DNA from: Planctomycetaceae bacterium | Lineage (GTDB): Bacteria; Planctomycetota; Planctomycetia; Pirellulales; UBA1268 | Assembly: GCA_005791575.1 (NCBI GenBank) | Contig: SXWA01000004.1 | Span: 1-61,811 of the forward strand | Length of the DNA: 61,811 nucleotides | Direction: 5' to 3' | Shown: piece after piece, positions 243 through 6,185 of the stretch | How the letters are laid out: each line of letters opens with the position of its first letter | How positions within the stretch are numbered: position 1 is the first letter of the stretch | Notes under the pieces: generated by a model | Database searches by the model: none | Told to the model about the DNA's origin: nothing | What the model saw: the letters and a program-made list of their open reading frames with translations, nothing else | Program-made: the position numbers and the translations under genes

Positions 243-577
243 GCCTCGGGAGCAGGGGGCGGCACTGTGCAGGCGGACGGTGGCGAAGGGGACTGTGGCG
301 GGGGAGTACACGGCCCGCCCGCTCAACGGTATCCGGGCGACGGCCCCGGATCTCCACGAACGCTCGGTGCCGACCCTCGCCGCGCTCCCCGAGCCGGCGG
401 CCGGCGACGTTCCATGTTCCATGTCGGGTCGCCGACGATCCCGTCATGATGCCCGACTTCAACACGACCGTGACGACGACCCTCGGCATCGACCCCGCGG
501 CCCGCGAGCAATCGCCGTCGGGCCGCCCCTTCACGATCGCCGGTGACGGGAGACCGGTGCCCGACCTGTTCGCGTGA
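243..577 (+). pseudogene. Remnant of a DUF1501-family (planctomycete) gene
   Basis: The C-terminus VADDPVMMPDFNTTVTTTLGIDP...SPSGRPFTIAGDGRPVPDLFA* resembles DUF1501 C-termini. The upstream part is in a different frame and much too short. Confidence 0.55.
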
Positions 578-744
578 GGCTGCCCGCGCCGCGGGCCCGC
601 TGGCAGCCTCGACTGCTCGCCGGAACTGCCACACGCCCGTCTCCCGCACCCTCCGCGGTTGAGAAGGCCTCTCCGATGTATGCTCGGGCCGAGTGAACCC
701 GCCATTTCCGCGGATCCTCCGCGCCTTGGCAGCACTACCCGACC

Positions 745-1683
745 ATGAGCCCTGACCCCACACCACCTTCTCCCGCGGCCGACGCCACGCCATCGTCATC
801 CGGCCGGCGGTTCCGGGTGGCGCTGAGCTTCCCGGGGTCGAAGCGCGACCGGGTCGAGCCGATCGCCGCGGCGCTCGCCTGCACGCTCGGAGAGGACTGG
901 GTTCTCTACGATCGCTACCACGAGGCTGAGTTCGCCCGGCCAAATCTCGACGTCTATCTTCCGCAACTTTACCGGACACAATCCGATCTGATCGTCGTGA
1001 TCCTCTGCCCGCAATACGCGGAGCGGCGCTGGTGTGGGCTCGAGCTGCGGCACATCCGCCAACTGCTCGGCACGCCCGAAGAAGCGCGGATCATGTTCCT
1101 GAGCTTCGGAGACCCGGGCGATCTCACCGCCACCGGCGTTCTCGCGGGCGATGGCTACGTGGACATCGAGCGCCGGTCTCCCGCGGAGGCCGCCGCCTTG
1201 ATCCTCGAGCGGCTCGGGCAGGAGATTCCGCGGAAGGAACGGCCTCCTCCTCCGGACCCCCGGCCGCCGAAGCTCCGGCTGCAGCGCCCAGCTGGGATGC
1301 TCACCCTCGCGGCGGGGCTCGGGATCGCCGCGGCGGCCTGGGGCATGGCGGCGTGGCGAGCGCATGTCTGCGCCGGGCTCTCCCGGCTGGGCTTCCATGT
1401 GCTCGCTTGCGAGACGAGCCTCGAGGCCGAGCGCATCGCCGCGCTGCACCCTGCCGCACACTTCGCCGCGCCGCCGGCCCTCCCGGCCGAAGATGGGCCA
1501 CGCTCGGAAAAGTGGCTCGTGGAGAACAGGAGCCACCGGCCGGTGGGAGTGTTGTTTGGAAAGCTGCGGGCTGCCGGCAGCGGCACACGGGAGGCCGACT
1601 CGTGGGAGAAGCTCACGATTCCCGCCGAGAAAGTCACGGAATGGTCCACGGGGGAGGAGCCCGCCGGTCGTTCCGGAGTGTGA
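745..1683 (+). CDS. TIR-domain (TIR_2-like) protein with one TM helix and a C-terminal extracytoplasmic domain; frame continues past the TGA to a TAG at 1878
   Basis: FRVALSFPG..., VLYDRY, LYRTQSDLIVVILCPQYAERRWCGLE (catalytic-type Glu codon 1042-1044), Pro-rich linker, hydrophobic AGMLTLAAGLGIAAAAWGMAAW. Confidence 0.85.
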   Translation: MSPDPTPPSPAADATPSSSGRRFRVALSFPGSKRDRVEPIAAALACTLGEDWVLYDRYHEAEFARPNLDVYLPQLYRTQSDLIVVILCPQYAERRWCGLELRHIRQLLGTPEEARIMFLSFGDPGDLTATGVLAGDGYVDIERRSPAEAAALILERLGQEIPRKERPPPPDPRPPKLRLQRPAGMLTLAAGLGIAAAAWGMAAWRAHVCAGLSRLGFHVLACETSLEAERIAALHPAAHFAAPPALPAEDGPRSEKWLVENRSHRPVGVLFGKLRAAGSGTREADSWEKLTIPAEKVTEWSTGEEPAGRSGV

Positions 1684-1892
1684 GTCGTCGCGGTCTACGA
1701 CCCCGCCGATCCGTGGACGCTGCTCGCGCCGCTACGGCCGCTGCGGCTGCTCTTCCGCACCGCCGCCGAGCAGGAGGGCCACGCCGACGTCAGTGCCCTG
1801 TCGCTCATCATCCAGGAGGGTGGCGGCTCCTCTCCGCTGGACATCCACCAGGATCCCGAACTTCGCATCACGCCCTAGTGAGAAACCACGTC

Positions 1893-2939
1893 ATGAGTGC
1901 CGTTCCTTCGTCGACCGGGCGAAAGCCTTCTCGCCTCCGCTGCGCGGCGGCCTGGCTCACGTGCTGCGGCTTCTCGGTGCCGATGGCGGCCGTCGCCCTG
2001 GAGCCCTTCATGCTCCGCAACGACGTTGGGGAGACGGCGCGGTTCGACTTCCTCGACACCGGCCTCGACTGGCGGGAGAGGCGACCGCTCGTGCCGCCGA
2101 AGTGGGTGCAGCCGGGACGGCAGGCGGAGGTGAGCCTTCCCGACCGTGACACCGTGGCTTTCCGGTACACGACGCTGAACAACCGGGCGAGCAGCACGAT
2201 TCTCTGGCAGGCGCAGCAGGCGTTGGCGTCGATCAACCCGAAGCCCGTGACGGTGACCTTCAAGGGGATCAGCGAGCGGATGGTGACCGAGGAGCGCACG
2301 CGGACGATGTCGGTGACGAAACAGGTGCCCGAGACCCGCACGAAAAAGGTCACCGTCACGAAGTACCGCGACGAGCAGCGGGTGCGGAAGATCGCCGTCC
2401 GCGACCCGGCCACGGGCCGGGTGACGTATCGCGACGAGCGGTACACCGTTCGTGTGCCCTACACGGAGGAGGTGGAGCAGACGTTCACGGTCAACGTGCC
2501 GGTCATGGAGCAGAAAACGCAGACCTACACCGTGCAGGTGCCGAGGTCCGAAGCCGTCTTCGACATCGGTGGCACGGCCGTCACCGCACCCGTGCTTTCC
2601 GCCGCGGGGGGGGACGGGCCGCGACTCATTCTGGGGGTGACACTCGGCGATGTGAATGGCGCACTCGTGACGGGAGTGGACGCCGGGTCTCCCGCCACCC
2701 GCATGAGGCTCTTCGGCCCGGATGCGGACGAAAACAAGCGTTACGCACTCGAGCCGAACGTCGATCGGATCGTGCGGATCAACGGGTCCGCCGTACGGAC
2801 GGGTGCCGAGGTCGCCGCCGCGGTGCAGAAATCGCCCGCGTCGTGCATCGTCACGGTGTCCAATCGGACGGGCGAGGAGACGTTCGAGGTCGAACTCGAG
2901 CCGGCGGCGGAGAACGACGCGCCGGCCCCCGGAAAGTGA
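1893..2939 (+). CDS. Secreted protein with YTV-like repeats and a C-terminal PDZ-like domain
   Basis: Signal-peptide-like N-terminus; T/V/K/E-rich repeats (RYTVRVPYTEEVEQTFTV, QTYTVQVP); PDZ-like LILGVTL...GALVTGVDAGSPA...DRIVRING. The ATG at 1893 is in frame with ORF 1032-2939. Confidence 0.7.
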   Translation: MSAVPSSTGRKPSRLRCAAAWLTCCGFSVPMAAVALEPFMLRNDVGETARFDFLDTGLDWRERRPLVPPKWVQPGRQAEVSLPDRDTVAFRYTTLNNRASSTILWQAQQALASINPKPVTVTFKGISERMVTEERTRTMSVTKQVPETRTKKVTVTKYRDEQRVRKIAVRDPATGRVTYRDERYTVRVPYTEEVEQTFTVNVPVMEQKTQTYTVQVPRSEAVFDIGGTAVTAPVLSAAGGDGPRLILGVTLGDVNGALVTGVDAGSPATRMRLFGPDADENKRYALEPNVDRIVRINGSAVRTGAEVAAAVQKSPASCIVTVSNRTGEETFEVELEPAAENDAPAPGK

Positions 2940-3178
2940 TCGGTCCCACGACGACGTCGGCATCCAGGAGGCTGACGACATGCCTGGTGTGGCCTCGGGA
3001 TGGACATCCCCGATCGACGGGAAGTCGTGCAGCGAGAGGCAGCCGGCCTCCCCCTGCGACGGCTTGCCGAGCATCAGGACCGCGGCGGGATTTTCTGTCG
3101 TCGCATCGTGATGCCCTACGCCCACGTCGCCGTCCGGATCGTCGACGACATCGTGAAACGCCCGGGAGTCTATCAGTG

Positions 3179-4924
3179 ATGGCACGAGGAAATCTGGTGG
3201 GGGTGAGGGTCTGCCTGAGTGCGTCGCTCGCCGATGACATGCGGCCCGCGCCGCGAACCGACACGGCCGAGTTCATCGCGCAACTCGCCCGCGCCGTCTT
3301 CCGCGAAGGGGGACACGTCGTGCACGGGAGCCATCCGTCGATCGTGCCACTCCTCGCCGCGGTGGCCAAGGAGACGTTTCCCGACGGCGGGGCGACGAGC
3401 CGGCTCACGCTCGTCCGGGCAGCGACGTTTTCCGGCGAGCAGTATGCCGGCGCCATCGAAGCCGATCGGGCCTTCGCCCGGGTCGAACTGATCCCAGCCG
3501 CGACGCCCGCGGAGGAGGACGCCGCCCGCGCCGAAATTCGCGACCTGGTGCCGATGCGCGACTGGATGGCCGACCGGTGCGACGTCGTCGTGGCGCTCGG
3601 GGGACGATGGTTCGACCGGGATGCCGAGCGGGCGGGAATACCGATCGAGATCGACGCCTTTCTCGAACGCGGCAAGCCGGCCTTCGTGATCACCGCGTGC
3701 GGTGGTGCGGCGGCGGGATACGCGGAGGCCGATCCCGGGCTCTCCGGCCGGCTCCACAACGGCCTCGACGCCACCGCGAACCGGGCCCTCGACAGCGAAC
3801 TCGCCGACGAGTCCTGCCAGCCGGCCGCGGCGGCCGGGGTCGCGGAGAAGATCGTGAAGCAGATCGGGCTGCTACCACTGCCAAGCCGCCGGATTCAGGT
3901 GCGGTCCACGGCCGCGGCCCCACCGCGCAGCAGGTCCGTGAGGGCCGCAATCTCCGGCACGGCGCCTGAGCCGCCCCCGCGTGACACCTTCCGCATCCTC
4001 TGCCTCGACGGCGGCGGGATCCGCGGGGCGTTCACGGCGGCGGTCCTCGCGACCTGGGCCGACATGCTCCCGAAGACGGCGGGGCAGCCGCTGTTCGTCG
4101 ATCGATTCGACCTCGTGGCCGGGACGTCGACTGGCAGCATCCTCGCCGTCGGGCTGGCACTCGGGCTCACGCCGGGGGAATTGGTCGAGCTTTACCGGGA
4201 GCATGCCGAGAAGATTTTTCCGCGGAAGAGCGGACTGTCGATCGTGTTCTCGAGGAAATACGACTCCGCGCCGCTCCGCGCGGCGCTCGAGACCTACCTC
4301 GGCGACAAGGTGTTTACCGAGGCGAAACGCCCGCTCGTGATCCCGACCGTGTCGGCCGTCCACGGGGAGGCGGTGCTGATCACCACACCGCACTCCCCGG
4401 ATCGCACCGCACACCGCGACATGAAGGCCGTCGAGGCAATCCTGGCTTCGGCAGCGGCTCCCGCTTTTTTCGCCGATGCCAACGTGGACGGGCCGATCGC
4501 GAGCGGCACGTACATCGATGGCGGCATGTGGGCCAACAACCCCGTGCTGCCGGCCATCATCGAGGCGATCGGGTATCTCGGCACCACCGCCGACCGGATC
4601 GACATCCTCAGCCTGGGCACGATGGCCACGGAATACGACTTCAGCAAGGCGCTCGGTGGGGGGTTGGCCCAGTGGGGGCCGCGGATTTCCGACCTGTTCT
4701 TCGCGGCCCAGGAGACGGGCGCCGCCGAGATGGCCCGGACTTTCCTCGGCGATGCGCGGCTCCTGCGGATCAACGACTTCACCAAGAACCTCCCCACCCT
4801 CGACGACGCGCAGGCCGTCTCCGCCCTCGTCGAACGCGGCCAGCAGATCGGCCGGAAGACCTTCCCCTCCGTCCGCAGCCGGTTCCTGGAGGGGCCGCCG
4901 GCCCCGGCATCGGCGATGCACTGA
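3179..4924 (+). CDS. SLOG domain fused to a patatin-like (CapV-like) phospholipase
   Basis: N-half: VCLSAS, GGHVVHGSHPSI, MRDWM..CDVVVALGG, GIPIEI, GKPAFVITACGGAA (SLOG). C-half: DGGGIRG, GTSTG, DGGMWANNP (intact patatin motifs). Confidence 0.85.
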   Translation: MARGNLVGVRVCLSASLADDMRPAPRTDTAEFIAQLARAVFREGGHVVHGSHPSIVPLLAAVAKETFPDGGATSRLTLVRAATFSGEQYAGAIEADRAFARVELIPAATPAEEDAARAEIRDLVPMRDWMADRCDVVVALGGRWFDRDAERAGIPIEIDAFLERGKPAFVITACGGAAAGYAEADPGLSGRLHNGLDATANRALDSELADESCQPAAAAGVAEKIVKQIGLLPLPSRRIQVRSTAAAPPRSRSVRAAISGTAPEPPPRDTFRILCLDGGGIRGAFTAAVLATWADMLPKTAGQPLFVDRFDLVAGTSTGSILAVGLALGLTPGELVELYREHAEKIFPRKSGLSIVFSRKYDSAPLRAALETYLGDKVFTEAKRPLVIPTVSAVHGEAVLITTPHSPDRTAHRDMKAVEAILASAAAPAFFADANVDGPIASGTYIDGGMWANNPVLPAIIEAIGYLGTTADRIDILSLGTMATEYDFSKALGGGLAQWGPRISDLFFAAQETGAAEMARTFLGDARLLRINDFTKNLPTLDDAQAVSALVERGQQIGRKTFPSVRSRFLEGPPAPASAMH

Positions 4925-5058: not shown

Positions 5059-5976
5059 TCACTCCAGGTGCAGCGGCTCGGGCATGAAGGTGACCAGCGG
5101 GATGACGAGCGAACAGAGCCCGAGCACCGTCCGGAAGCGGTCGAGCGACTGCCCCTCCTCGCGGATCGGCGGATGGTCGGCACCGATCACGGTCACCAGC
5201 ACCACCATGATGATCCAGTTGTAGCGGCCGAGGAACACGATCCCGGCGATCGACGCGCAGAGCAGGCTCCGCGCCAACCAGTTGGCCCGCGGGCCGAACA
5301 GGGCATACACCACATGCCCGCCGTCGAGTTGGCTGATCGGGATCATGTTGAGGCCGGTGACGAGCAAGCCCACCCAGCCGGCCATGTAGAGCGGGTTCGG
5401 CGCGATGCCGCCGCCGGAGAGGAGGTCGGGCCGGACCAGTGCCATCAGCCAGCGGGCCAGCGGCGGCATCGCGAAGAGCGGATCACTGCTCGGGGTGCCG
5501 AGCACCATGCCCGCCACCAGCGCCGGCACCGCGAGGACGAGCCCCGCCAGCGGACCCGCGATGGCGATGTCGAAGAGTTGGCGGCGGTTCGCCCGCGACC
5601 CCTCCATGCCGATCACCGCGCCGAGCGTGCCGGTGAGCATCACCGGCACGGGGAGGAAGAACGGGAGCGTCGCGGGGATCCGGTGGATGCCTGCGGCGAC
5701 GAAGTGACCAGCCTCGTGGGCGCCGAGCACCGCCAGCACCGCCAGCATGTAGGCCAGCCCCCGGCCCCAATGCAGCGGCACCTGCGCCGCAAGGTCGGCG
5801 TCGACCCCCAGCACGAGCGGCTGCCAGCCCACCACCCCGGCGGCGAAGGTCGTGGCTGCAGTCGCCAGCCAGAGCAGCGCCTGCCACGGCACCCGGGGCC
5901 ACCGCCACCTCCCCGGGAGCACGATCAACGGGTCGATCGCCGGCAACGGGTCGATGGCGGGTGGGGAGGAAGCCAT
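5059..5976 (-). CDS. Site-2 protease (M50 family) intramembrane metalloprotease
   Basis: HEAGH, IAIAGPLAG and NMIPISQLDGGH motifs; several TM helices. Confidence 0.9.
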   Translation of the reverse strand: MASSPPAIDPLPAIDPLIVLPGRWRWPRVPWQALLWLATAATTFAAGVVGWQPLVLGVDADLAAQVPLHWGRGLAYMLAVLAVLGAHEAGHFVAAGIHRIPATLPFFLPVPVMLTGTLGAVIGMEGSRANRRQLFDIAIAGPLAGLVLAVPALVAGMVLGTPSSDPLFAMPPLARWLMALVRPDLLSGGGIAPNPLYMAGWVGLLVTGLNMIPISQLDGGHVVYALFGPRANWLARSLLCASIAGIVFLGRYNWIIMVVLVTVIGADHPPIREEGQSLDRFRTVLGLCSLVIPLVTFMPEPLHLE

Positions 5977-5997
5977 GGTTGTCAGAATACTGCTTAG

Positions 5998-6116
5998 CAG
6001 GCTGTGGACAAACAGCCTGCTGCACCTCATGGATGAGGTGCCGGGAGCGAAACTCCCGTGAAAACCGCAGGTTTTCGTGTGGCCAAAGGCCAGGGATGGA
6101 CTTTGGCCACGGGCTG
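5998..6116 (-). mobile_element. 119-bp MITE copy
   Basis: Reverse-complement homologue of 120-238, flanked by TTAG (5994-5997 and 6117-6120), in a divergent intergenic region. Confidence 0.85.
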
Positions 6117-6185
6117 TTAGCGCGGGGGGTGGTAAACTACTGGCCCTTCTCCGCTGAGACCCTCCAGAATTTTCGGAGCTTCCTG

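Follow-up and report, generated by a model that had tools for sequence, protein, structure and literature searches.

Three open reading frames on the + strand, of 312, 348 and 581 aa, form a cassette near the start of the window, the whole 61,811-nt stretch of DNA that was analysed. They encode, in order, a TIR protein (gene 1), a secreted YTV/PDZ protein (gene 2) and a SLOG-patatin fusion (gene 3), and each coding frame agrees with third-position GC. The original prediction of three co-oriented genes with these products is borne out by ORFs, profile matches and GC3, and the flanks, a MITE and pseudogene on one side and a convergent gene on the other, are also as it described them. The host is a freshwater planctomycete. 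The locus contains the following features:

1-242 (copies at 1-119 and 124-242), + strand: 119-nt dispersed repeat, MITE/REP-like, in two tandem copies that are 100% identical; left boundary
401-577, + strand: remnant of a DUF1501 3' end, a pseudogene fragment (DUF1501 positions 341-390 of 390, E 9.5e-5, 22.1 bits)
745-1683, + strand: gene 1 in its present form (312 aa), with an N-terminal TIR, one membrane helix and a truncated C-terminal domain
817-1185, + strand: TIR domain, about residues 25-146, with E100 at 1042-1044 (TIR_2 25-27 bits; AbTir-like fold of a homologue)
1297-1386, + strand: predicted single transmembrane helix, about residues 185-214 (helix of the P0122 model; hydrophobic run judged by eye)
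1681-1683, + strand: premature in-frame TGA stop in gene 1, Trp (TGG) in all full-length homologues and in two lake strains
1684-1881, + strand: original 3' end of gene 1, still in frame (65 codons and the TAG stop; coding-type GC3 to about 1800)
1893-2939, + strand: gene 2, 348 aa (YTV E 1.2e-9; PDZ_6 E 1e-4, below cut-off; 59% identical orthologue in locus L094)
3179-4924, + strand: gene 3, 581 aa, SLOG-patatin fusion without a signal peptide
3203-3874, + strand: SLOG domain, about residues 9-232 (LD_cluster2 E 1.8e-6)
3983-4894, + strand: CapV-like patatin phospholipase domain, about residues 269-572, with Ser317 at 4127-4129 and Asp447 at 4517-4519 (Patatin E 1e-32)
5059-5990, - strand: convergent Peptidase_M50 gene (E 1.4e-15); right boundary, outside the cassette
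5992-6119, - strand: inverted copy of the 119-nt repeat, 92-93% complementary to 1-118 and 117-244

As annotated, genes 1 and 2 are separated by 209 nt and genes 2 and 3 by 239 nt; with gene 1 extended past its stop to the ancestral end at 1881, the first gap shrinks to 11 nt. The 119-nt repeat has at least 54 matches genome-wide, many of them at contig ends. The DUF1501 match scores below the model's cut-off of 27 bits and is regarded as a gene remnant because it covers just the last 50 positions. The longest ORF of the Peptidase_M50 gene extends to 6270, its first part being read from the 119-nt repeat. The cassette's neighbours are this protease and an Orn/DAP decarboxylase; it lies outside any defence island, and no other defence gene was seen beside it. 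As originally stated, the window holds no CD-NTase (PF18144); none was found in the rest of the cassette's own genome (74.5% complete) either, nor was a second TIR. None of the 20 runs that contain this DNA is on record as RNA.

The match of gene 1 to TIR_2 (E 2.6e-5, 25.1 bits) falls below the Pfam cut-off of 28 bits. The TIR fold is supported through a 96%-identical natural homologue, P0122, whose model matches AbTir (7uxu_A, E 9.8e-4, TMt 0.64) as well as the TIRs of RPS4 and MyD88. The glutamate of the WCxxE motif, which had been described as retained, is present in W96-C97-G-L-E100, and among 21 relatives conservation of the W, C and E is 90% or higher. In the P0122 model the TIR is followed by a helix (166-190, corresponding to window residues 190-214) and a beta-sandwich with a pLDDT of about 90. 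A linker rich in Arg, Lys and Pro precedes the predicted transmembrane helix of gene 1, and a Cys pair is conserved just after it in the consensus of relatives. The modelled arrangement suggests that the TIR is probably cytoplasmic and the beta-sandwich periplasmic.

A nonsense change, TGG to TGA, interrupts gene 1. The in-frame TGA noted originally is real: all of the homologues P0121-P0127 have W at this position, and position 1683 is G in X5 and X9 and A in X1 and X2. The intact TGG allele is retained in sister strains of other lakes. The stretch beyond the stop codes for the final strands of the beta-sandwich (strands 285-346 of the P0122 model). By the TGA the ectodomain loses its last 65 residues, so that the system is probably disabled or altered in this strain.

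Gene 2 comprises a signal-like N-terminus (about residues 1-35), an N-domain that belongs to no known family, YTV repeats (about 130-225) and PDZ (about 245-335). The signal-peptide-like N-terminus, judged by eye, is also seen in 15 aligned relatives. Prediction of a complex between gene 2 (36-348) and the P0122 ectodomain (195-353) gave weak support, with a score of 0.52 (runs of 0.52, 0.00 and 0.53), in a range (up to 0.60) where predictions fail more often than they succeed unless the pairing is likely beforehand; the best of three controls scored 0.00. When the tool was calibrated, 58 of 80 solved complexes attained the mark, as did 2 of 110 mismatched pairs. The pLDDT of the partners was at least 76 and agreement between runs at least 0%. 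Together with synteny in one further contig, the prediction hints weakly at a role for the YTV/PDZ protein in the cassette.

On that contig, L094, genes 1, 2 and 3 again occur together. A homologue of gene 1, present as its C-terminal end, is accompanied there by a YTV/PDZ gene with 59% identity to gene 2, which lies directly upstream of a SLOG-patatin gene with 64% identity to gene 3; the downstream flanks differ. A sample of 401 genomes from the phylum yielded orthologues of gene 2 and full-length homologues of gene 3 in one genome, the window's own.

The original description of gene 3 as a SLOG domain fused to an intact patatin is upheld by the LD_cluster2 and Patatin matches and by the motifs DGGGxRG, G-T-S317-T-G and D447-G-G, which are invariant in 22 aligned sequences. 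The SLOG motifs HGSHPS and GG...AG-x-P-x-E are conserved, and the domain scores 28-31 bits against the ThcA model, below its 110-bit cut-off. Its structural model superposes on the BcThsA SLOG with 3'cADPR (7uxs_B, E 2.6e-6, TMt 0.66), and also on 6lhx, 7uxt and 8bto. The lipase half aligns with positions 4-322 of the 331 in the PADLOC phospholipase effector profile (E 3.3e-79), and its model matches AbCapV (8zr9_A, E 3e-21, TMt 0.76); PDB entries 9wn1 and 9kh6 match this half at 1.4e-40 and 1.5e-40. The predicted fold is thus a ThsA-like SLOG joined to a CapV-like lipase. The family is large (639 matches). NCBI's name for it, "CBASS cGAMP-activated phospholipase", comes from its lipase half, which passes the CapV equivalog model NF041079 (215.5 bits, cut-off 200). 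The name is probably a misnomer, since no CD-NTase was found in the 74.5%-complete genome, the protein has an additional SLOG domain of some 230 residues and the neighbours are TIR genes.

Absence of TIR genes beside SLOG-patatin homologues had been named beforehand as an outcome that would speak against the proposed system. A TIR gene lies beside full-length homologues at 11 loci checked singly (L001, L002, L003, L005, L006, L007, L093, L095, L098, L174 and L175) and at five more in a pooled tally of six loci (L003, already counted, with L097, L104, L106, L108 and L111), in which 13 of 24 neighbouring ORFs match TIR_2, 7 match ThsB_TIR and 6 match SLOG cluster 3. One locus, in a genome of the same genus, has a SLOG-patatin paralogue (40% identity) with no recognisable TIR in the seven neighbouring ORFs scanned. 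The closest full-length relative of gene 3 (L093, 73% identity) has an LRR-Roc-COR-TIR gene directly upstream. No BLASTP likeness was seen between the window TIR and the SLOG-patatin-associated TIRs of L005, L006 and L093; the association is therefore one of domain superfamily, not of orthologues. In Gammaproteobacteria, SLOG-patatin genes occur in operons with ThcB4 and ThcA, named "Thoeris type III" by NCBIfam, and these operons contain only TIR and SLOG genes. The neighbours at L001 pass both type III equivalogs (ThcB4 464 against 220 bits, ThcA 247 against 110), and at L113, which holds the closest sequence-available relative of gene 3, the gene directly upstream passes the ThcA cut-off (136 bits). 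The 538-aa form of SLOG-patatin occurs on plasmids (13 records, of which 9 are conjugative) and also beside a Tn7-like tnsD gene.

With moderate confidence, the cassette may be read as a Thoeris-type abortive-infection system with a phospholipase effector and an envelope sensor. An anti-phage function is probable, and a putative TIR-to-SLOG-to-lipase pathway of Thoeris type is well supported by genomic context. In the course that we infer, from envelope cue to cell death, the ectodomain of gene 1 and the gene 2 protein would jointly sense a cue such as an adsorbing or injecting phage or a damaged envelope. TIR domains, whose Glu100 is of the catalytic type, would then gather at the inner membrane face and convert NAD+ into an ADP-ribose-derived signal. 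On binding of this signal to its SLOG domain, the gene 3 fusion, predicted to be cytoplasmic, would oligomerise and its lipase would degrade membrane phospholipids, so that the infected cell would stop or die before phage maturation. The original proposal, in which SLOG reads a signal made by the TIR and a patatin is thereby switched on, stands on the TIR co-occurrence and the two predicted folds, but its type I model gives way to type III Thoeris as the nearest known system.

It may be, although this is rather unlikely, that the system has two genes, a membrane TIR sensing through its own ectodomain and the SLOG-patatin, with YTV/PDZ a syntenic passenger. The YTV/PDZ gene is missing from SLOG-patatin operons elsewhere, its place at L093 being taken by the LRR-Roc-COR-TIR gene, and from the TIR- and SLOG-only gammaproteobacterial operons; YTV repeats occur widely among other proteins of the genome and class, and the complex prediction is weak. 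However, gene 2 sits between genes 1 and 3, 11 nt past the ancestral end of gene 1, and the order is kept in L094, where the proteins are 59-64% identical and the downstream flanks differ. Both the gene 2 protein and the ectodomain of gene 1 are predicted to lie outside the cytoplasm, and the real pair scored 0.52 against 0.00 in all three controls.

That the TIR sends no signal to the lipase appears improbable. The TIR would then be an NAD+-depleting effector or something else, and SLOG-patatin would answer a different nucleotide, such as a cyclic dinucleotide bound by the CapV-like part or a signal made elsewhere. Fusions to STAND-type ATPase domains are frequent among relatives of the window's TIR domain, and TIRs in such fusions are usually regarded as NAD+-depleting effectors; the lipase half, for its part, exceeds the CapV equivalog cut-off and fills nearly the whole PADLOC CBASS lipase profile. 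Against this, the 74.5%-complete genome yielded no CD-NTase, Pfam, NCBIfam and annotation gave TIR and SLOG genes and named no CD-NTase beside SLOG-patatin at the other scanned or annotated loci, and the extra SLOG domain is predicted to fold like the 3'cADPR-binding domain of ThsA. More improbable still is a non-defence pathway of envelope stress or lipid remodelling, in which a periplasmic PDZ protein would report the state of the envelope, by way of the membrane TIR, to a regulated lipase. Sensing of envelope stress is a common role of PDZ proteins, and the cassette has housekeeping neighbours and no other defence gene seen beside it. However, the patchy distribution (the one genome in 401), the presence of related SLOG-patatins on conjugative plasmids and beside Tn7-like genes, the operons shared with named type III genes and a nonsense allele that segregates among strains are typical of accessory defence genes and not of core physiology.

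The Thoeris-type reading can be set against several known systems. Gene 3 resembles the CapV/CapE effectors of CBASS in the sequence and fold of its lipase half and its intact Ser-Asp dyad, and by analogy it probably shares CapV-type activation by ligand-induced assembly, as suggested by the titles of CapV filament structures. Unlike CBASS, no CD-NTase was found in its 74.5%-complete genome, and it adds the N-terminal SLOG domain in a family whose neighbours are TIR genes. Type I Thoeris (ThsB TIR, ThsA SIR2-SLOG) has the same logic, a TIR and a SLOG-sensor effector, and the gene 3 SLOG model superposes on that of ThsA. It is set aside because the window has no SIR2 domain, the effector being a patatin lipase, and because the SLOG is Pfam LD_cluster2 rather than the ThsA/STALD type; the window TIR also matches TIR_2, not ThsB_TIR, and is predicted to be membrane-bound.

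Type III Thoeris was reportedly described by van den Berg et al. 2024 (Cell Host Microbe). It likewise pairs TIR proteins with a SLOG-domain protein; homologues of gene 3 in the 538-aa form share operons with the ThcB4 and ThcA equivalogs, and the relative at L113 has a ThcA-type gene directly upstream. It differs in having several TIR genes, whereas the window has one and lacks ThcA and ThcB4. ThcA is a free-standing 184-position cluster 3 SLOG, whereas the window SLOG is cluster 2 and fused to a lipase; the window cassette further has a YTV/PDZ gene inserted and a TIR predicted to be anchored in the membrane and to bear an ectodomain. This comparison draws on the NCBIfam models ThcA (NF058525) and ThcB4 (NF058526) and on a sentence in a 2025 preprint (Yirmiya et al., bioRxiv 10.64898/2025.12.03.692087), which describes the type III signal molecule as uncharacterised.

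The main text of the same preprint counts phospholipases among 29 putative TIR-adjacent Thoeris effector types. These resemble the cassette in having a predicted phospholipase effector adjoining TIR genes, although they are not named in its text among the validated types V-XI, and the words "periplasm" and "PDZ" are absent from that main text; SLOG-patatin may already appear in its Figure 1C or Table S1. The three-gene combination is less novel than originally supposed: the fusion family is widespread and found in type III operons in Gammaproteobacteria, and phospholipases are already listed among predicted Thoeris effectors. What is particular to the window cassette is gene 1, with its cytoplasmic TIR, one helix and a beta-sandwich that is probably periplasmic, which recurs with YTV/PDZ on a second contig.

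The cassette is carried on contig C251, which is 61,811 bp long with a G+C content of ~70% and is one of 274 contigs in a 3.84-Mb assembly that is 74.5% complete. The original prediction of three co-oriented genes, with a repeat and a pseudogene to the left and a convergent gene to the right, is borne out by open reading frame (ORF), Pfam and repeat analyses, and the frames of all three genes are tracked by third-position G+C. The features are as follows.

1-242: 119-nt repeat, two tandem copies, left of the cassette
401-577: remnant of a DUF1501 gene, last 50 positions, Pfam match below the cut-off
745-1683, forward strand: gene 1, TIR protein, 312 amino acids
1893-2939, forward strand: gene 2, YTV/PDZ protein, 348 amino acids
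3179-4924, forward strand: gene 3, SLOG-patatin fusion, 581 amino acids
5059-6270 (longest ORF), reverse strand: convergent Peptidase_M50 gene (Pfam), right flank
5992-6119: inverted copy of the 119-nt repeat, right of the cassette

The 119-nt repeat is a dispersed element and not a cassette-specific border, since it has at least 54 matches across this genome. The copies are 89-100% identical to one another, and most full-length copies are 95-100% identical. Because they frequently occur as tandem pairs, and many lie at contig ends, the repeat is probably the cause of many of the assembly breaks. The idea of a mobile unit bounded by 119-nt inverted repeats is rejected on the same genome-wide count, which renders the flanking unspecific. 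The longest ORF of the Peptidase_M50 gene begins within the inverted copy; the gene itself probably starts beyond the repeat, at lower coordinates. Scans for promoters and terminators found no forward-strand promoter and do not define the limits of an operon. Genes 2 and 3 are separated by 239 nt (2940-3178), in which a third frame has a coding-like G+C peak of 0.82-0.88; in a related cassette on the metagenome contig L094, only ~85 nt separate the end of the YTV/PDZ ORF from the start of the lipase match.

In gene 3, the predicted fusion of a SLOG domain to an intact patatin is confirmed by Pfam, by invariant motifs and by Foldseek searches with an AlphaFold model (pLDDT 76.3, pTM 0.75). The Pfam matches are LD_cluster2 (E 1.8e-6, 28.2 bits against a cut-off of 25.3 bits) and Patatin (E 1e-32). 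All three hallmarks of patatin-like phospholipases are present, namely the oxyanion motif DGGGxRG (D277-G283), the GxSxG nucleophile (G315-T-S317-T-G319) and the aspartate of the DGG motif (D447-G-G), and they are invariant in 22 aligned members of the family, in which the SLOG loop residues G141/G142 and G153-P155-E157 are also conserved. The C-terminal half of the model matches AbCapV filaments (8zr9_A, E 3e-21, TMt 0.76). The N-terminal half, predicted to have the Rossmann-like fold and glycine-rich ligand loop of the SLOG superfamily, matches the BcThsA SLOG domain with 3'cADPR (7uxs_B, E 2.6e-6, TMt 0.66), and further matches include other ThsA entries, TM1055 and the SLOG-like domain of TRPM4.

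The SLOG-patatin family comprises 639 matches at E <=1e-3 among 8000 scored candidates, and the members listed are mostly ~538 amino acids long, from Pseudomonas, Vibrio, Shewanella, Aeromonas and others. Many bear the NCBI name "CBASS cGAMP-activated phospholipase", which derives from a match of the lipase half alone to the NCBIfam model NF041079 above its cut-off, as in gene 3 (215.5 bits against a cut-off of 200). In PADLOC, too, the lipase half is the only part of gene 3 with a match, here to a CBASS-type phospholipase effector (E 3.3e-79). Because the family has a SLOG domain and adjoins TIR genes, this name is probably a misnomer, which suggests a systematic misannotation.

Co-occurrence of SLOG-patatin and TIR genes, chosen beforehand as the test of a TIR-made signal read by SLOG, is found at 11 loci examined individually and in a pooled tally, with one paralogue locus (L091) lacking a TIR.

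L002 (Pseudomonas silvicola), L005 (Nitrospira) and L006 (Planctomycetaceae): adjoining TIR gene
L001, L007, L095 and L098: adjoining TIR gene
L003: adjoining TIR gene, also in the pooled tally
L093, 1-3762, forward strand: upstream LRR-Roc-COR-TIR protein of more than 1250 amino acids, TIR match below the cut-off
L174 (E. coli plasmid NZ_CP034659), 3445-10119: lipase flanked by five annotated TIR genes, with Tn7-like tnsD adjoining
Bradyrhizobium plasmid: 1032-amino acid TIR protein downstream of the lipase
L091, 8637-10484, reverse strand: SLOG-patatin paralogue, 615 amino acids, 40% identical to gene 3
L091, 10560-12644, reverse strand: upstream protein of 694 amino acids, HExxH motif, no match in Pfam
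L091, 5079-6308, reverse strand: nearby AAA_21 (AbiEii-like) ATPase

The pooled neighbours of six loci (L003, L097, L104, L106, L108 and L111; 24 ORFs) yielded 13 TIR_2, seven ThsB_TIR and six SLOG cluster 3 matches. The L113 contig is too short and was kept outside the adjacency count. At the same-genus paralogue locus L091 (G004:C336), no recognisable TIR occurs among the seven neighbouring ORFs scanned. Neither flanking protein (694 and 307 amino acids) has similarity to gene 1, the 694-amino acid protein also has none to gene 2, and it may be that this paralogue has a different partner set.

The partner TIRs are diverse, and that of gene 1 has no BLASTP similarity to those of L005, L006 and L093. 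At the last of these loci, where the lipase is 73% identical to gene 3 and its nearest full-length relative, the TIR partner is of a very different kind and there is no PDZ gene; judging by its domains, the upstream protein is a ROCO-type sensor fused to a TIR. The seven-gene order on the E. coli plasmid is TIR, TIR, SLOG-patatin, TIR, TIR (ThcB4-like in size), a 189-amino acid hypothetical protein (ThcA-like in size) and TIR. Four of 5426 complete E. coli genomes carry this operon stretch (6.8 kb) at 99% identity or more, and RefSeq E. coli records of it still carry generic gene names.

Gene 1 matches TIR_2 in Pfam with an E value of 2.6e-5 (25.1 bits, below the 28-bit cut-off), and its W-C-x-x-E motif (with the glutamate at residue 100, E100) shows conservation of at least 90% across 21 relatives. 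Its structure was read from a model of the natural intact homologue P0122, based on 21 aligned sequences (mean pLDDT 77.7).

Residues 1-135: N-terminal TIR domain
Between the TIR domain and the helix: poorly ordered Pro/Arg-rich linker
Residues 166-190 (window residues 190-214): one long helix
Residues ~230-346: C-terminal beta-sandwich, pLDDT near 90

The fold of the TIR domain matches AbTir (7uxu_A, E 9.8e-4, TMt 0.64) and the TIR domains of plant RPS4 and RUN1 and of MyD88. Because an N-terminal signal sequence is absent, the predicted topology should place the TIR domain in the cytoplasm and the beta-sandwich, or ectodomain, outside the membrane; a conserved cysteine pair just past the helix fits this location. 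The Foldseek matches of the ectodomain are too weak to be interpreted (E ~2e-3 to 3e-2), and include the luminal domain of HGSNAT and domain 4 of cholesterol-dependent cytolysins. A sequence search with P0122 residues 195-353 alone returned only the query, which reflects a word-index limit and is not proof of a lone domain. Neither PADLOC nor NCBIfam has a match for genes 1 and 2, and the ESM Atlas values for the ectodomain (0.84) and the gene 2 N-domain (0.80) are at chance level by the tool's own figures.

The in-frame TGA flagged in the TIR gene (1681-1683) is real. Coding-type composition continues beyond it, and the frame stays open for a further 65 codons until a TAG (1879-1881), which leaves 11 nt to the start of gene 2. 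Six full-length relatives have a tryptophan at the position of the TGA, followed by a conserved tail: P0122, which is 96% identical to gene 1, and P0123-P0127, which are 47-49% identical in alignment A2. The same is true of P0121, the homologue end on L094. As an allele check, public metagenome contigs were aligned to the cassette region. Runs X1, which may be the source sample, and X2, from another study, each have one contig across 600-5000, with three and 10 differences respectively; none is at 1683, and both therefore carry the TGA allele. Runs X5 and X9, from other lake studies, each have one contig across 638-5000, with 57 and 56 differences, and in both position 1683 is G, giving TGG. 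Since the relatives have tryptophan and the runs divide between TGA and TGG, the codon is a real nonsense allele segregating among close strains and not a recoding signal. TGA is a usual stop in high-GC bacteria. Its being read as tryptophan here is ruled out, as the frame past 1683 ends in TAG and then directly TGA, and X5 and X9 have TGG.

In the window strain, the ectodomain is thus truncated by the nonsense codon, which in the P0122 model cuts the beta-sandwich strands from ~285 on, roughly 40% of the sandwich. The cassette is present in 20 freshwater or lake metagenome runs from 16 studies (2019 to 2024), none of the 20 recorded as RNA, and the two alleles constitute a natural on/off pair of lake strains that could be used in field or laboratory comparison. 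Several smaller differences are also seen. In X5 and X9, GAG replaces the TAG stop of gene 1 (1879), which extends the protein by one codon to the TGA that follows; in gene 2 of the same runs, the loss of one base is offset by the gain of another two bases away (2077/2079). At positions 782, 1734 and 4911, all four compared runs, including the possible source sample, differ from the window, and these may be assembly consensus errors.

Gene 2 matches YTV (E 1.2e-9) and, below the cut-off, PDZ_6 (E 1e-4) in Pfam. Its N-terminus, charged, then hydrophobic, then composed of small residues, is alike in all 15 aligned relatives, and leads into an N-domain that belongs to no known family; YTV repeats rich in Thr, Glu and Arg come next, and then a PDZ domain. 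This is a small family, with 107 matches at E <=1e-3, 19 at 1e-10 and five at 1e-30 among 1.84 billion representatives, and of the 401 genomes sampled from the phylum, the source genome alone has a gene 2 orthologue or a full-length gene 3 homologue. The cassette order recurs independently once, on L094, which starts inside a gene 1 homologue and retains its C-terminal end, followed by a YTV/PDZ gene (59% identical to gene 2) and a SLOG-patatin gene (64% identical to gene 3). The genes downstream, encoding DUF3800 and DUF4011-helicase proteins, differ from those in the window. Complex prediction for mature gene 2 with the intact ectodomain reached 0.52 (runs 0.52, 0.00 and 0.53; best of three controls 0.00), a range in which, by calibration, a pass at or below 0.60 is wrong in most cases unless the pairing was already likely. 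With a partner pLDDT of at least 76 and run agreement of at least 0%, the model lends weak support to this pairing.

The best-supported explanation of the cassette, as read from sequence and models, is a Thoeris-type pathway leading from a TIR signal via SLOG to a lipase. The TIR enzyme would derive a signal from NAD+, this would be bound by the SLOG domain of gene 3, and the CapV-like lipase would be switched on, probably via assembly as in ThsA and CapV, given the solved filament structures among the fold matches. The mechanism as first proposed is a reasonable one.

Within the SLOG-patatin family, the sensor module appears to be interchangeable. Small ThsB-like TIRs accompany ThcA in Gammaproteobacteria, STAND- or ROCO-fused TIRs occur in Nitrospira, Planctomycetes and Bradyrhizobium, and in the window an ectodomain-bearing membrane TIR has a predicted periplasmic PDZ partner. 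This last arrangement, as modelled, suggests sensing at the envelope. A tentative and rather doubtful extension is that gene 1 is a TIR receptor of Toll-like receptor topology (ectodomain out, one helix, TIR in) that, with a periplasmic PDZ co-receptor, detects phage at the envelope before or as DNA enters, the TIR nucleotide then acting on a SLOG-gated lipase. Known Thoeris TIR proteins are described as sensing phage inside the cell, and a review passage cites capsid proteins as an example of the trigger. If the envelope reading is true, the cassette would be the first of the Thoeris type to sense outside the cytoplasm; TIR signalling could start at the envelope, and the parallel with animal Toll-like receptors would be stronger.

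Comparison with CBASS and Thoeris places the cassette nearer to the latter. CBASS requires a CD-NTase (SMODS), and, as originally noted for the window, none is present: PF18144 has no match there or in the source genome (74.5% complete). A CapV-type lipase is present as one half of gene 3 by both model score and 8zr9_A fold. By the general definition of Thoeris, a TIR with a catalytic glutamate is present in gene 1 (by fold and the conserved W-C-x-x-E100, with TIR_2 below its cut-off), and an effector with a ligand-sensing domain is encoded two genes downstream on the same strand. Type I ThsA has a SIR2 domain, whereas gene 3 has no SIR2 match and has a patatin instead. Type III Thoeris has several TIR proteins according to the text of a preprint (Yirmiya et al., bioRxiv 10.64898/2025.12.03.692087), whereas profile searches of the 74.5% complete source genome give one PF13676 and zero PF08937 matches, with no ThsB_TIR and no second TIR_2. 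The ThcA equivalog is absent from the same genome, where only the SLOG of gene 3 scores (30.6 against 110 bits), and ThcB4 has no match.

The type III link comes from relatives. At the SLOG-patatin locus L001, a 380-amino acid TIR protein downstream of the lipase passes the "Thoeris type III ThcB4" equivalog (464 against 220 bits), and a 189-amino acid SLOG cluster 3 protein scores above the cut-off of "Thoeris type III ThcA" (247 against 110 bits). On L113, a 285-amino acid SLOG cluster 3 protein (506-1363, forward strand) passes the ThcA cut-off (136 against 110 bits), and its gene lies directly upstream of a planctomycete-type SLOG-patatin with an N-terminus 79% identical to that of gene 3. 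The same preprint text calls type III signalling uncharacterised and places phospholipases among 29 putative Thoeris effector types (bioRxiv 10.64898/2025.12.03.692087), so that the idea of a lipase effector has, in general form, been published already. No description of a SLOG-patatin Thoeris or of a TIR that senses in the periplasm was found in the literature searched, and the figures or supplements of the preprint may list the architecture. The SLOG-patatin family belongs to a known Thoeris kind, tied to type III operons, and its SLOG domain and TIR neighbours suggest that it is a missing effector for that poorly understood type; what is novel in the cassette is the sensor module of membrane TIR and YTV/PDZ protein.
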